This document shows, piece after piece, positions 8,416-12,338 of a stretch of DNA of 20,203 bases (positions are counted from its first letter, which is position 1; the number at the start of each line of letters is the position of its first letter). Source of the stretch: a virus; UHGV virus genome UHGV-1356910; one strand, 5' to 3'. Both the position numbers and the translations under genes were made by a program. A model generated the notes under the pieces. That model did no database searches. It worked only from the letters and a program-made list of their open reading frames with translations, and had not been told where the DNA came from.

Positions 8416-8721
8416 TCAATATACATTTTGCACCTTCGATATAGTAATGGCCGTTACTGTAATATGAGTTACAAACAGCTTCATACCCAGAGCTACTGAT
8501 GTATCAACACGATTCAACAATACCCGATATTTATTCCATGCCTCCAGCAACGATCTTTCTTCCTCCGTTGCGATTTCCAGATCTACAGCATCCTGCAGTG
8601 GCGCAATATACTCACTGAATTCCTGGATGTAGAACTGTGTGGTGACGGTCTTCCAGCCATTCGGCTCCTGCTGTATCGAAGCATACCAGGCTATTTCAAT
8701 ATCGCTATGCTGCGGCAGCAT
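8416..8721 (-). pseudogene. Tail fibre assembly (Tfa) protein fragment: C-terminal half with an aberrant terminus
   Basis: Contains [37 protein letters not shown], then departs from the canonical ..TAPDIEWP.. ending. The N-terminal half of the family is missing and the methyltransferase gene lies where it would be. Confidence 0.6.
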
Positions 8722-8777: not shown

Positions 8778-9446
8778 ATGGTGAAATTAATGAAAAAAAA
8801 CACAGATGATGGGGCTAAAATTTACACACCACTTACCCTAAAGCTTTATGACTGGTGGGTTTTGGGAGTATCAAATCGGCTTGCATGGGGATGTCCTACA
8901 AAGGAACACCTTCTTCCACACTTTCTGGAACATTTAGGTAACAACCATCTGGATATTGGTGTTGGAACTGGGTTTTACCTTACTCACGTACCTGAGAGTA
9001 GTCTGATATCTTTAATGGATTTGAACGAAGCTAGCCTGAACGCGGCATCTACAAGGGCAGGGGAATCAAAAATTAAACATAAAATTAGCCATGATGTTTT
9101 TGAACCTTATCCCGCGGCGTTACATGGTCAATTTGATTCCATTTCCATGTTTTACCTTCTTCACTGCCTGCCTGGAAATATATCTACAAAAAGCTGTGTA
9201 ATACGCAATGCGGCGCAGGCCTTAACTGACGATGGAACTCTATACGGAGCCACAATTCTTGGCGATGGAGTTGTGCACAATAGCTTCGGTCAAAAACTGA
9301 TGCGCATTTACAATCAGAAAGGCATCTTTTCAAACACAAAAGATTCCGAAGAAGGCTTAACACATATACTCTCAGAGCATTTCGAGAATGTTAAAACCAA
9401 GGTTCAAGGTACTGTAGTAATGTTTTCCGCTTCAGGGAAAAAATAG
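8778..9446 (+). CDS. Class I SAM-dependent methyltransferase (small-molecule/RNA type, not an obvious DNA MTase)
   Basis: Motif I LDIGVGTGFYL, about 220 aa. The more likely start is ATG 8790 after GGTGA. Its position between tfa remnants recalls the ybcY pseudogene context at the edge of E. coli K-12 DLP12 (memory, unverified). Confidence 0.8.
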   Translation: MVKLMKKNTDDGAKIYTPLTLKLYDWWVLGVSNRLAWGCPTKEHLLPHFLEHLGNNHLDIGVGTGFYLTHVPESSLISLMDLNEASLNAASTRAGESKIKHKISHDVFEPYPAALHGQFDSISMFYLLHCLPGNISTKSCVIRNAAQALTDDGTLYGATILGDGVVHNSFGQKLMRIYNQKGIFSNTKDSEEGLTHILSEHFENVKTKVQGTVVMFSASGKK

Positions 9447-9500: not shown

Positions 9501-9629
9501 TTACTCCCTGACAGGGTTCGTAGGCCACTCAATATCAGGTGCAGTTGATGTATCAACACGGTTCAGCAACACCCTGCATGCCTTCCATGCCGCCAGCAAT
9601 GATGTTTCCTCCTTCGTTGCATATACTGC
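9501..9629 (-). pseudogene. Tail fibre assembly (Tfa) 3' remnant with no start codon
   Basis: The - strand frame translates to ..[39 protein letters not shown], the canonical Tfa C-terminus. An in-frame stop lies 43 codons upstream and there is no in-frame start. Confidence 0.7.
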
Positions 9630-9638
9630 TCACCTTTT

Positions 9639-9932
9639 TCACCCACGATTAACCAACAGCCAGACCAGCAGACACGCCACCACCGGCACAGCAAAATCCA
9701 TCAGGCTTGCCACATCCCATGCACGTGGATCAAAACCGCCCCACCACGGCATGTTAATCCGCTTGCCATGCCCGAACATTTCAATCCAGCGATATTCTGC
9801 CTGGGTGTGTTCACGCGCAATGAAGAACGTACAACCGGCTATCGCCCCGTAAGCCCAGTTTCCGGTAAAAAGACCAGCCAGTACCTGCACCGCCACGGCA
9901 CAAAGCGCATGAAGTATCGACGTGATATCCAT
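9639..9932 (-). CDS. Small membrane protein (97 aa, two predicted transmembrane helices), function unknown
   Basis: ATG preceded by AGGA; hydrophobic segments at both ends of the product. Follows orf92 by 9 bp in the same orientation as stf. Confidence 0.6.
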   Translation of the reverse strand: MDITSILHALCAVAVQVLAGLFTGNWAYGAIAGCTFFIAREHTQAEYRWIEMFGHGKRINMPWWGGFDPRAWDVASLMDFAVPVVACLLVWLLVNRG

Positions 9933-9941
9933 CTGCTATCC

Positions 9942-10220
9942 TTAAAACCACTCCCTGAGCGGGCGCTCTGGTGTAACCACCCACTCACGGAACACGGAAT
10001 CATCAAATCCATCGTCAAGAAGACGGATATTAACAAAGTACCCTTCGTTTCGCGTGTATTCTGGTTCTCCGTCATCAGAAACATCTGTCTCCCTGAACGT
10101 AAAACCAATCTCATCAACCAGAACGGCATTCTGCAGCTCTTCGTCCTCTTCCCAGTTAAGTTTCCTGAGAAATGCCCTGAAATCTGCTTTATCACTGAAA
10201 CGCAACGTGAAATCTCTCAC
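9942..10220 (-). CDS. Small acidic protein (92 aa), function unknown; translationally coupled to stf
   Basis: GTG start overlaps the stf stop (GTGA) with a GGGGAGG Shine-Dalgarno 7 nt upstream. Product is strongly acidic (many D/E). Confidence 0.6.
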   Translation of the reverse strand: MRDFTLRFSDKADFRAFLRKLNWEEDEELQNAVLVDEIGFTFRETDVSDDGEPEYTRNEGYFVNIRLLDDGFDDSVFREWVVTPERPLREWF

Positions 10221-12280
10221 TCCACAACCTCCCCAAGCTGCGCATCTGTTAGCTCTTTATGCCAGAGACGAAAATTCCTCACATGCCCAAATAAATGGCG
10301 TAATCCTGCTGTAGTTTGTCCACCAATGCGAATGGTTGCTGTACTCCGGATATATTCCCATTTGGTTTTAGTTTCGCTGCTTAACTTACCGTTACTGACT
10401 ACACATGTGGACCGTTCGGACTTTACCCGCATACCAATAAGCATTTTTTTCAGCCCGGCATTTTCATTTATTCGTCGGTTTGAACCACCAATATCACAAT
10501 ACGGAAAACCGTCGTACCCACCTGATGAACCAAACCCCATTACGATCCCCGCATCTGCCTGATGCCGGTATGTGTCAAAAACACGTGGCGCTGCATTTGG
10601 CGTTTTATACCAGTTCTTATGTACCTCACAAAGAACCGTAAAAGGAAGATTATAAAGATTATTCTTAATCGGAACTGTAACCATATCGCTTGCCCGCGTT
10701 ACCGGTGCCGTCCCCGTAACAATAAAAGATGATGCGCCTGTACCAGCCTCAATCTGTGGAGTGGTTACATCGAGATAATCCCTTGATGCAACCATCTGCC
10801 CTGTATCCGGAGAATACTGGACAAAACCGCCAACCGTATTTTCTGTTGTATCTGCTTTTAATGTAGCCTCAAAAAATATCCAGCCAGTTGCATCATCCTT
10901 AACAGACCTTGCTGTAACACGGCTTGTCTGACCTGTCTTGCTAATTATGCGGGTGGTAAGGTTCAGGCTTGCTGCTCCTATTGATGTCCTTACCTCCCCA
11001 TCATAATGTTCAAATAAAATACGAACGGCGATATTATCAACTTCACTTTTTACCCGACAGGATATAGTTACATACTTTTCGTCCCCTGAAGTATCAACCC
11101 CTCCGGTACTCGAATACAGTCCGATAATGGTATGCGCTTTACTTGTACCAACAATCGAATCCTGTACGACAAACCGGCCATAATTAAACCCGAAACTATC
11201 TGTGCCTGTTTCTGTAACGTCCAGTGAAGTTGACTTATTCCACTTCGAAGGGTCTGTACTGTTCGGGAAGAAGTTCGTTCTTTGCCCCTCAATAAGCAGG
11301 CCATCACACTCAAATCGTGGCTCATTAATTTCCGCCGTTTTCAGTTCGCCAGATTTGTTGATATATGTTGCCGTTGATGCGCGACTGAAATTAACCTGTT
11401 TATCACTGGCAACCTGAACCACATTATCACCAATCTTCACTTTTTTATAACCCGGAGAATAGCCCGTAATCATATCCAGCGAATCATTAAAGGGTATCCA
11501 CACATCCGGCAGCGGCTGTAAAACATATCTGTACGGCTCTGCTGTCTGGTTTGCGTATTCTCTGGCAGCATCTTCACTTGCTTTTGCTGCCGTCTGGCTT
11601 GCTGCCGATGCTTTCGCCGAGTTCGCCGCCGCTGTTTCGCTCACCTTTGCGTTGGCTTCACTGTCTTTGGCATTCGTCTCACTGGTTTTCGCTGCCGTCT
11701 GGCTGGATTTTGCGTTTTTTTCGCTGGCCTTTGTGGCTGTCTCGCTATTTTTCGCGTTGGTTTCTGATTTTTTGGCTGCTGTCGCGGAGTTTGCCGATGC
11801 AGTCTGCGAGGCCGCTGCCGCCTGTGCGCTGTTAGCTGCATTCGTCTCTGATGTTTTCGCCGCATTCCTGGACGATGCCGCTGCTGTTTCTGATTTCTTT
11901 GCTGCCGCTGCGCTCTGAGAGGCGGCTTCAGCGTTGCGTGCCACCTCTTCCACCATCTTTTCAAAACGATACAGTGCCTCCGGACGAACATCATCTTCTG
12001 TTGCAGCGCCCAGAAAATCATTCAATGTCCCCGGCTTAGAATCCTCATACACGGTGATGGCCCCGGCATGTGAAGGCGGAAAACCTTCAACCAGCAGGAT
12101 AACGCTGTACTGGCCATACTCGACATCCATGCTGTAACGTCCGGCTTCATCCGGATTTTCTGAGGCCACCGTGTTCACCACAACCGTGGTGCTGTTACGT
12201 TTTGCTTTGAGCTGAATGGTGCAGTTCTGTATCGGTTTTCCTGCACCGTCTTTCAGCACGCCTGAAATCTGTACTGCCAT
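10217..12280 (-). CDS. stf: Side tail fibre protein (Stf-like) with an Ala-rich repeat shaft and a non-lambda C-terminal domain
   Basis: N-terminus MAVQISGVLKDGAGKPIQNCTIQLKA.. matches the lambda Stf N-terminal domain. The likely start is ATG 12280 after GGAG; the ORF-track start at 12286 is GTG. The C-terminus ends ..NFRLWHKELTDAQLGEVVE. Confidence 0.85.
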   Translation of the reverse strand: MAVQISGVLKDGAGKPIQNCTIQLKAKRNSTTVVVNTVASENPDEAGRYSMDVEYGQYSVILLVEGFPPSHAGAITVYEDSKPGTLNDFLGAATEDDVRPEALYRFEKMVEEVARNAEAASQSAAAAKKSETAAASSRNAAKTSETNAANSAQAAAASQTASANSATAAKKSETNAKNSETATKASEKNAKSSQTAAKTSETNAKDSEANAKVSETAAANSAKASAASQTAAKASEDAAREYANQTAEPYRYVLQPLPDVWIPFNDSLDMITGYSPGYKKVKIGDNVVQVASDKQVNFSRASTATYINKSGELKTAEINEPRFECDGLLIEGQRTNFFPNSTDPSKWNKSTSLDVTETGTDSFGFNYGRFVVQDSIVGTSKAHTIIGLYSSTGGVDTSGDEKYVTISCRVKSEVDNIAVRILFEHYDGEVRTSIGAASLNLTTRIISKTGQTSRVTARSVKDDATGWIFFEATLKADTTENTVGGFVQYSPDTGQMVASRDYLDVTTPQIEAGTGASSFIVTGTAPVTRASDMVTVPIKNNLYNLPFTVLCEVHKNWYKTPNAAPRVFDTYRHQADAGIVMGFGSSGGYDGFPYCDIGGSNRRINENAGLKKMLIGMRVKSERSTCVVSNGKLSSETKTKWEYIRSTATIRIGGQTTAGLRHLFGHVRNFRLWHKELTDAQLGEVVE
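11590..11935 (-). repeat. In-frame degenerate tandem repeats encoding the Ala/Ser/Thr/Asn-rich Stf shaft (..KTSETNA.. heptad-like units)
   Basis: Repetitive GC-rich codons generate several spurious antisense ORFs in this interval. Confidence 0.5.
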
Positions 12281-12290
12281 ATTCACTCCA

Positions 12291-12319
12291 CAAATAAAAA
12301 AGGCACCATTTCTGGCGCC
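12291..12319 (-). terminator. Rho-independent terminator between J and stf
   Basis: On the - strand: GGCGCCA, GAAA tetraloop, TGGTGCC (7-bp stem with one G-U pair) followed by TTTTTTATTT. Confidence 0.55.
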
Positions 12320-12338
12320 CGTATCTGGGTTATAAAAT

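Follow-up and report, generated by a model that had tools for sequence, protein, structure and literature searches.

The 20,203-nucleotide stretch of virus genome UHGV-1356910 analysed here (the window) raises the question of what has taken the place of the tail-fibre assembly gene tfa behind the side tail fibre gene stf. The window is an ev243-like lambdoid prophage of E. coli EC9682, adjoining yecD/aspS, in which stf is followed by two small genes, orf92 and orf97; a preliminary description, made from the letters alone, had read this pair as a joint replacement for tfa. Our analysis separates the two. On the reading to which we incline, and which we hold to be somewhat better than even, orf92 would encode a trans-acting assembly partner of the lectin-like head in which this fibre ends, orf97 would be a separate accessory gene for an inner-membrane protein, and the lambdoid locus would have arisen by block replacement.

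The genes in question lie on the minus strand, and Stf residues are numbered after the 689-amino-acid (aa) form of the protein:

10217..12286, minus strand: stf, side tail fibre gene; open reading frame (ORF) from the GTG at 12286 (689 aa), with the start placed by the Prokaryotic Genome Annotation Pipeline (PGAP) at the ATG at 12280 (687 aa)
10220..11518, minus strand: fibre-head module, Stf residues 257-689, from NF048003, PDB 6tb9 and the alignment with the fibres of five phage groups
10228..10234, minus strand: Shine-Dalgarno sequence GGGGAGG of orf92, within the 3' end of stf, 7 nt upstream of the GTG (direct sequence reading)
9942..10220, minus strand: orf92, 92 aa, acidic, predicted cytoplasmic (phrog_1361, E 1e-40)
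9939..9943, minus strand: Shine-Dalgarno sequence AAGGA of orf97, overlapping the orf92 stop codon, 6 nt upstream of the ATG (direct sequence reading)
9639..9932, minus strand: orf97, 97 aa, small predicted inner-membrane protein (phrog_1443, E 6e-58)

The 3' end of stf reads ...GAG GTT GTG GAG TGA, with the GTG of orf92 overlapping the stf stop codon (GTGA), and 9 nt (GGATAGCAG) separate the TAA stop of orf92 from the ATG of orf97. Since residue 1 of orf92 aligns with the Met of all homologues, the GTG start is correct. The overlapping GTG with its GGGGAGG Shine-Dalgarno sequence and the acidic 92-aa product were thus described correctly before, as were the 97-aa orf97 nine bp further on and the start-less tfa 3' relic behind it. 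The three genes correspond to genes 22-24 of the classical phage 21 (orf92 being 23 and orf97 being 24), and the preliminary description's proposal to look for the same arrangement in related prophages was borne out, the order stf-orf92-orf97 being kept in 78 of the 78 IMG/VR lambdoid loci that reach far enough, with 9-18 nt between orf92 and orf97; in two further lambdoid loci the contig ends right after orf92. Both small genes are under purifying selection, with ratios of nonsynonymous to synonymous substitution rates (dN/dS) of 0.13-0.25 wherever dS is not saturated. Because of these ratios, the hundreds of homologues and the order kept in 78 loci, orf92 and orf97 are confirmed as real genes, common rather than rare or new to the databases.

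The fibre upstream of them is a composite. Its N-terminus is lambda-like (PF08400 phage_tail_N, E 1e-68), the N-terminal 94 aa also matching PDB 9e7m 'Tail fiber protein' (E 1e-49), whereas from residue ~257 onward Stf consists of a distinct non-lambda module of ~430 residues; a non-lambda C-terminus and the lack of an intact tfa had both been noticed before, and both hold. Residues 331-532 match NF048003 GTA_spike_fiber at 70.5 bits against a cut-off of 36 (E 2.4e-19), the head matches PDB 6tb9, the head spike fibre of the Rhodobacter capsulatus gene transfer agent (RcGTA; E 9.4e-5), and the head allele of phage 21 matches Laminin_G_3 at E 5e-5, under the Pfam cut-off. By these matches the module appears to be ConA/LamG-like and to resemble the RcGTA head-spike fibre Rcc01080, to which Stf residues ~300-547 correspond; it differs from Rcc01080 in that the matching domain stands at a tail-fibre tip, with another LamG-like part on its C-terminal side. 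A conserved frame (LPDVWIPFNDSL..., EPRFE-DGLLIEGQRTN and, as the C-terminal end, GGQT-G-RHLFGH-RNFR-W) is accompanied by a hypervariable stretch (residues 347-506) and a basic C-terminal part (residues 572-689). The head is present in 223 phage records and aligns over its ~430 residues with the lateral-fibre ends of Hanrivervirus, a T5-like phage and an rV5-like myovirus, fibres of five phage groups in all. In a Pfam scan, Peptidase_S74 (PF13884) was found in rV5 gp41 and in the second fibres discussed below, and not at the C-terminus of Stf or of the EmilHeitz fibre. A published fibre atlas reports, from cryo-electron microscopy of EmilHeitz virions, a 'lectin-like head' on the fibre RBP_10 (PMC12143355), which would be the fibre encoded upstream of the orf92 homologue and carrying this module.

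Wherever this head was traced, orf92 goes with it. By tblastn, orf92 is found in 196 phage records, always abutting a fibre gene, in lambdoids including phage 21, Drexlerviridae, T5-like, 9g-like and Dhillonvirus phages and rV5-like myoviruses, and in every record common to the orf92 and head tables (196 and 223 records, respectively) the orf92 match begins at most ~21 nt from where the head match ends; in the inspected loci the orf92 start overlaps or abuts the fibre stop codon. The difference between the two record counts is one of search sensitivity: AKFV33 and phiG7, whose heads are the most diverged (~36% identical) and which the orf92 tblastn missed, still carry an 88-aa family member directly downstream of the head (profile E 2e-16 and 1e-18). 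Among the records, MG065635-MG065690, OR847733 and OR848352, labelled 'Campylobacter phage' or 'Listeria phage', contain either an orf92-homologue gene 99-100% identical to that of E. coli rV5-like phages or T5-like fibre sequence, and are probably mislabelled or contaminated.

An exchange of alleles within one fibre gene bears directly on this linkage. In rV5, gp41 ends in Peptidase_S74 and gp40 comes directly next with no small ORF between, whereas in EmilHeitz and CarlMeissner the gp41-homologous fibre is without S74 and ends in the head, an orf92 homologue being inserted ahead of the gp40 homologue; this head-plus-orf92 allele is present in 35 of 123 related records. The S74 C-terminus and the head with orf92 are alternative alleles of one Vequintavirus fibre gene, and head and orf92 therefore form one cassette that stands where other alleles have a cis-acting chaperone. 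Within the lambdoids, a single orf92 allele serves heads that are only 41-48% identical over residues 347-506, and it is residues 572-689 that track orf92; this part of the head is basic (isoelectric point, pI, 9.5 and 8.8) where orf92 is acidic (pI 4.26, with 24 acidic and 12 basic residues). The window-type and phage 21-type orf92 alleles are 64% identical over 91 residues, dS between them being saturated and dN 0.28, and against the allele of the close phage ev243 dN/dS is 0.25.

What orf92 encodes matches no characterised family, as the preliminary description had said of both small proteins. It aligns over residues 1-92 with positions 1-92 of the 92 of PHROG 1361 (function not known; E 1.1e-40), and its family comprises 329 protein clusters. 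Nothing usable was returned for orf92 or orf97 by Pfam, NCBIfam, PADLOC or PDB-sequence searches, both falling only into function-unknown PHROGs, with no PADLOC-DB family for either at E<=1. At E<=1 the Pfam scan of orf92 gave noise only (best E 0.078, unrelated families), while the same scan found PF02413 in the Tfa relic at 8416-8721; the PHROG 'tail fiber assembly' families likewise match the Tfa relic and not orf92. The AlphaFold model is a small alpha/beta fold (mean predicted local distance difference test score, pLDDT, 88) for which no informative structural neighbour was found.

orf92 is a fixed, dedicated partner of the head module, and since it occurs in virulent phages its function belongs to the lytic cycle. 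Most likely it is an assembly factor for the head, without being a Tfa homologue. Its coupling to the fibre stop codon would give roughly equimolar synthesis, and the acidic protein would then bind the basic head residues ~572-689 during folding and trimerisation of the fibre, after which it may remain on the mature head. It would in this way be the counterpart of Tfa for lambda-type tips, or of the cis-acting C-terminal S74 domain. With the Tfa family (lambda Tfa, P2 G, Mu U; PF02413 Caudo_TAP) orf92 shares its map position, directly after the fibre gene, its small size and its exchange together with the tip as a cassette, but it has no Caudo_TAP profile match. With the S74 intramolecular chaperone (K1F, T5 pb1, DT57C LtfA/LtfB, rV5 gp41) it shares the equivalent position at the fibre end; S74, however, acts in cis and is cleaved off, whereas orf92 is a separate polypeptide, and the head, unlike the cleaved S74, would be retained in virions if RBP_10 is this fibre (PMC12143355). 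The earlier suggestion of a novel fibre chaperone or adaptor therefore fits the inseparable linkage to the head and the lack of a Caudo_TAP match, its mechanism being a proposal.

Some other leads on orf92 came to nothing. A role as an immunity protein neutralising a toxic C-terminal domain was dropped, no enzymatic or toxin signature having been found in the head. In KarlJaspers, the label 'putative lateral tail fiber chaperone' belongs to an S74 protein, encoded by the gene after the orf92 homologue, and not to that homologue, on which the BASEL papers are silent; the DT57C papers concern S74-type fibres without orf92, and rV5 virion proteomics is uninformative because rV5 itself has the S74 allele. 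In the literature that we found, no paper mentions the accessions or PHROG numbers of orf92 or orf97.

The second gene, orf97, belongs to a different story. Its product aligns over residues 1-96 with positions 1-96 of the 97 of PHROG 1443 (function not known; E 6e-58), and its family counts 571 clusters at 90% identity and 450 at 50% identity, all of 58-146 aa and single-domain. The motif RExxQAEYR is near-invariant, and the majority residues H8, R40, E41, Q44, A45, E46, W72 and P83 each occur in at least 93% of 115 diverse members (median identity 39%). Two strongly hydrophobic stretches, residues 1-27 and 71-97, stand out in the hydropathy profile, and the AlphaFold model (pLDDT 94) has three helices (4-23, 26-53 and 74-96), so the preliminary description was right to call it a membrane protein and, with two transmembrane helices, probably counted one too few. 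K+R average 5.35 in positions 39-73 against ~0.1 in the turn at 24-25; by the positive-inside rule the predicted topology is N-in and C-out, with the charged RExxQAEYR loop toward the cytoplasm. No lipobox is present, the sequence around C11 (H-A-L-C) misfitting L-[AST]-[GAS]-C and C11 lying outside the conserved columns. The protein is not Lom/Ail-like, having no Pfam match and an all-helical model rather than a beta-barrel, and not holin-like, having no Pfam or NCBIfam match and lying in the tail-fibre region in every phage context inspected.

In phages, orf97 sits behind receptor-binding genes of quite different kinds. In the P22-like phages Gally and 611R6 the order is tailspike, orf97, int, in the seroconversion slot (in 611R6 beside an OafA O-acetylase); in phiHAP-1 it is tfa, orf97, sheath; in Leclercia orf97 follows an S74 fibre, in Comamonas a giant J protein, in Salmonella it lies between two tailspike genes, and in Enterobacter it is found in a P2-like prophage. 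The small proteins encoded ahead of orf97 gave no lead: that of Comamonas (72 aa) and that of Enterobacter (71 aa) are unrelated both to orf92 and to each other. The window shares DNA with P22-like phages from precisely the orf92 stop codon onward, so that the common block starts at the ribosome-binding site of orf97 itself, some lambdoids have a second fibre gene between orf92 and orf97, and in the inspected virulent phages orf97 was not found beside orf92. In Aeromonas and sphingomonads the family is also chromosomal, and among the neighbours of its Aeromonas and alphaproteobacterial copies are Pirin, ligA and further housekeeping genes; orf97 is 55-60% identical to chromosomal Aeromonas and Comamonas genes, the invariant motif being shared. 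Several loci of alphaproteobacteria, Desulfovibrio and Halomonas have the predicted orf97 start lying within the end of the longest ORF upstream; of the ORFs so overlapped only two are phage-like, one an S74 tailspike and the other a LamG protein. Across 70 genomes no conserved neighbour was found, and clustering of all ORFs of 76 loci returned only orf97 and its antisense shadow ORF. DNA like orf97 occurs in 1,900 of 5,426 complete E. coli genomes, with a median of two copies, and the E. coli copies were seen only in prophages.

The distribution shows orf97 to be a family of bacterial origin that has been taken up by temperate phages of all three morphotypes and placed 3' of receptor-binding loci. 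Related phages differ in whether orf97 stands between two otherwise adjoining genes, and it moves alone, which is one mark of a moron, a term reportedly used by Juhala and colleagues in 2000 for an autonomous cargo gene. Of the earlier suggestion of a moron analogous to Cor or Lom, the separately mobile accessory gene stands and the analogy does not, orf97 having no lipobox and being helical rather than a beta-barrel. A few further records deserve mention beside this distribution. In Escherichia phage HC6 and relatives, several ~47.7-kb virulent-looking phages, an unannotated fragment matching orf97 residues 41-93 follows an 859-aa hypothetical protein (locus L170, 3001-3159) and could be the remains of a degraded copy. 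In a 2.8-kb contig assigned to Collinsella (L095) the orf97 gene is 92% identical to the E. coli copy, most likely through binning contamination, and two 877-bp scaffolds of Desulfovibrio piger (L128 and L130) carry orf97 homologues.

Expression of both genes can be followed in published RNA-seq data of E. coli LF82, which has three prophages with orf97 homologues (PMC9928086; values as log2(fpkm+5), fpkm being fragments per kilobase per million). In Gally, the orf97 homologue rises inside macrophages from ~4 to 8.4-8.7 log2, exceeding the tailspike just upstream, from which it is separated by a terminator, while terL, portal and injection genes stay at 2.5-4; orf97 is above the tailspike with the late genes silent also in the B1/B6 samples, not in lysogeny broth (LB), and the authors give a 6- to 40-fold induction for the five rightmost Gally genes (PMC9928086). 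In Perceval, log2 fold changes (log2FC) in macrophages are 4.85 for stf, 3.73 for the orf92 homologue and 3.0 for the orf97 homologue, J and lom remaining at background, and over Perceval and Tritos the side-fibre block (stf, orf92 homologue, second fibre) reaches log2FC 3.7-7.9 (PMC9928086). Because the fibre block is induced while J and lom just upstream are at background, the side-fibre genes seem to have their own promoter, distinct from that of the late operon, and under these conditions the block is transcribed apart from that operon. orf92 shares the regulation of the fibre genes. Without prophage induction orf97 can still be expressed, though only in certain conditions and in some of the prophages. 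A moron of LF82 described as a 'transmembrane protein', LF82_152 (81-fold over background), was examined as a possible orf97 and rejected, as it lies two locus tags from the cI repressor gene; promoter and terminator scans around Aeromonas orf97 were uninformative.

As a predicted three-helix inner-membrane protein, orf97 stands outside the head-assembly machinery. For its function we propose, with low confidence, that it acts on some conserved process at the inner membrane of the lysogen, either blocking the entry of superinfecting DNA or altering envelope biogenesis. Among known systems, T4 Imm, P22 SieA and HK97 gp15 are, as orf97 is predicted to be, small polytopic inner-membrane phage proteins, and those stop DNA entry, the mechanism that we hold to be likeliest for orf97, although orf97 has no detectable homology to them (Pfam, PHROG annotation, PADLOC) and they are not known to have widespread chromosomal orthologues. 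Cor (phi80, N15, T1) and Llp (T5) are likewise small proteins encoded beside receptor-binding genes. They are, however, outer-membrane lipoproteins that block a specific porin, whereas orf97 is without a lipobox, is predicted to be an all-helical inner-membrane protein and lies behind receptor-binding proteins of many unrelated specificities. D3 Iap of Pseudomonas and Gnarl1-3 (PMC12373910) resemble orf97 in having fewer than 100 aa and in being, in some cases, phage cargo, and change the surface and phage susceptibility by non-enzymatic alteration of the O-antigen; gnarl1 and gnarl3 are in lytic phages and gnarl2 is Mu E6, and by the paper's description Gnarl1-3 appear to be different genes from orf97 (PMC12373910). 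The orf97 family differs from Iap and Gnarl in occurring also in sphingomonads. A bolder version, which we regard as speculative and improbable as a whole, would make orf97 an undescribed class of small inner-membrane effectors, repeatedly captured by temperate phages, induced in macrophages and blocking DNA entry or rewiring the envelope by binding a conserved host membrane protein, with orf92 as a third kind of fibre chaperone.

Several observations weigh against an assembly partner next to a separate lysogenic membrane gene. The co-variation of orf92 with head residues 572-689 could stem from physical linkage alone, and partial orf97 homologues occur in virulent Aeromonas jumbo phages. In LB the orf97 homologues of LF82 are all below the authors' 5-fold moron cut-off, and in Tritos orf92 and the second fibre are strongly up in macrophages while the orf97 copy is not induced (PMC9928086). 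In the window itself, a simple scan found no promoter-like or terminator-like site near orf97, which lies only 9 nt behind orf92 and may there be mainly a late gene. Sphingomonads are without classical lipopolysaccharide (LPS), so the chromosomal orf97 orthologues there argue against an O-antigen-specific activity. Finally, a second fibre gene stands behind orf92 in five phage groups, with Peptidase_S74 in KarlJaspers, Stokescottia and Tritos and an annotated 'tail fiber protein' in AKFV33 and phiG7 (loci L173, 2418-3458, for Tritos; L006, 3770-4447; L008, 3789-5519; L171, 3083 onwards; L172, 3087 onwards), which would also fit an adaptor role. Over ~15 residues the N-termini of these second fibres share M-x-T-x-T-x-I-P-x-D-I-x-x-L-K, the remainder diverging, and this conserved peptide suggests branched side fibres and keeps the adaptor role of orf92 alive. 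On that account orf92 would be a structural component kept in the virion that anchors a second, shorter fibre on the lectin-like head, and not a folding chaperone; the common peptide looks like a docking peptide, coupled and roughly equimolar synthesis suits a structural protein, and the branched LtfA/LtfB fibres of DT57C are documented (PMC4728585). We nevertheless judge it improbable, for orf92 is kept without a second fibre in the window prophage, ev243, phage 21, Perceval and rV5-like phages, the window-type and phage 21-type alleles, both from phages with no second fibre, are still clear full-length homologues, and the peptide could equally dock on the conserved frame of the head. That orf92 and orf97 jointly replace Tfa, with orf97 serving this fibre, has in its favour their constant company at fixed spacing in the 78 lambdoid loci, their place at the position of tfa with a Tfa relic behind, and their joint induction in Perceval. 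The distribution nonetheless largely refutes it, and we give it very little credence: orf92 stands without orf97 in the inspected virulent phages with this head, and orf97 in turn is found with no orf92 in chromosomes and after tailspikes, S74 fibres and J proteins of unrelated kinds; what the window shares with P22-like phages has its boundary right at the orf92 stop codon; in Tritos the second fibre gene splits the two, which are regulated differently; and the small proteins ahead of orf97 in Comamonas and Enterobacter are unrelated to orf92. The preliminary description's pair is thereby dissolved into two genes, each of which occurs without the other.

For orf97 alone, two further accounts compete with a function in the lysogen. 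It could be a late lytic membrane protein made alongside the receptor-binding protein, masking or altering receptors against the loss of progeny on debris, or tuning lysis, with no part in lysogenic conversion. In favour of this, gaps of 0-20 nt couple orf97 tightly to a preceding fibre or tailspike gene in several contexts, the window among them; its expression is at background in LB lysogens and goes along with that of the preceding fibre or tailspike in Perceval and Gally; and partial homologues occur in jumbo phages. That orf97 in Gally exceeds the tailspike from behind a terminator, with the rest of the late operon silent or repressed, that it was not found beside orf92 in the inspected virulent E. 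coli phages, and that stand-alone chromosomal orthologues exist in non-phage contexts leave this account, to our mind, rather unlikely. Alternatively, orf97 might retain a housekeeping membrane function, as in its chromosomal relatives, and be carried as fitness cargo whose place behind fibres merely reflects an insertion hot spot at late-operon ends. Known cargo hot spots (the P2 Z/fun region, the P22 gtr region and lambdoid effector loci) coincide with orf97 positions, the identity to Aeromonas and Comamonas chromosomal genes extends to the invariant motif, no neighbour is conserved across the 70 genomes, and the induction in macrophages is shared with other cargo genes. Yet orf97 is found also inside receptor-binding clusters, as between the two Salmonella tailspike genes, its start overlaps the end of an upstream ORF in several alphaproteobacterial, Desulfovibrio and Halomonas loci (with the two phage-like cases noted above), and in E. 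coli its copies were seen in prophages only, so that we hold this account unlikely as well. We therefore keep to orf92 as the partner of the head and orf97 as a separate accessory gene.

Around these genes, the window has further features, among them traces of the exchange that would have produced the locus:

~9501..9629, minus strand: Tfa C-terminal relic without a start, from its translation (PGAP 'tail fiber assembly protein, missing N-terminus')
8778..9446, plus strand: class I S-adenosylmethionine (SAM) methyltransferase gene between both Tfa relics (gene annotation)
8416..8721, minus strand: second Tfa C-terminal relic (PF02413 Caudo_TAP, E 9e-18, profile positions 75-121 only; PGAP pseudogene)
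12301..12320, minus strand: terminator-like hairpin between J and stf (pattern scan)

In minus-strand order the region thus runs J, hairpin, stf, orf92, orf97, Tfa relic, the SAM methyltransferase on the plus strand, and the second Tfa relic, beyond which lie the cargo genes for an alpha/beta hydrolase and ompT; phage 21 has an annotated terminator at the place equivalent to the hairpin. The first relic begins a few nt past the orf97 stop, the same relic is found behind orf97 in IMG/VR loci, and it marks the right-hand edge of the exchanged stf-tfa segment. For the lambdoids, a block of head, orf92, in some cases the second fibre, and orf97 would have been exchanged for the 3' portion of stf together with the 5' portion of tfa, which would be why a Tfa relic lies beside orf97.

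The same layout of two Tfa C-terminal relics around the SAM methyltransferase is present in the viable phage ev243. Draft contigs of the IMG/VR loci L021, L026, L031, L040, L061-L066 and others stop a few bases past orf97, likely since the Tfa relic is a multi-copy repeat that breaks assemblies. Between J and stf the window has no lom (12287-12338), where ev243, Perceval and several close E. coli relatives have an Ail/Lom gene. In the cargo region, the 494-aa alpha/beta hydrolase (6748-8232), with ompT just upstream, has a hydrophobic N-terminus that, as read from the sequence with no predictor, resembles a signal peptide, and it matches the PADLOC candidate defence-associated model C3a206 'TAP-like protein' at E 2e-55.

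Taken together, the lectin-like head with orf92 is among the commonest exchangeable host-range cassettes of E. coli phages, several BASEL reference phages included. If orf92 is needed for assembly of the head, fibre transplants for phage retargeting must include it, and if the proposed role is true, orf92 would be a third, non-homologous solution to fibre folding beside Tfa and S74. orf97, in turn, is present in about one third of complete E. coli genomes, often in multiple copies, and in the model phage 21, and with its conserved motif, its high-confidence predicted structure and its published induction in macrophages it offers a testable candidate for a new prophage membrane function.

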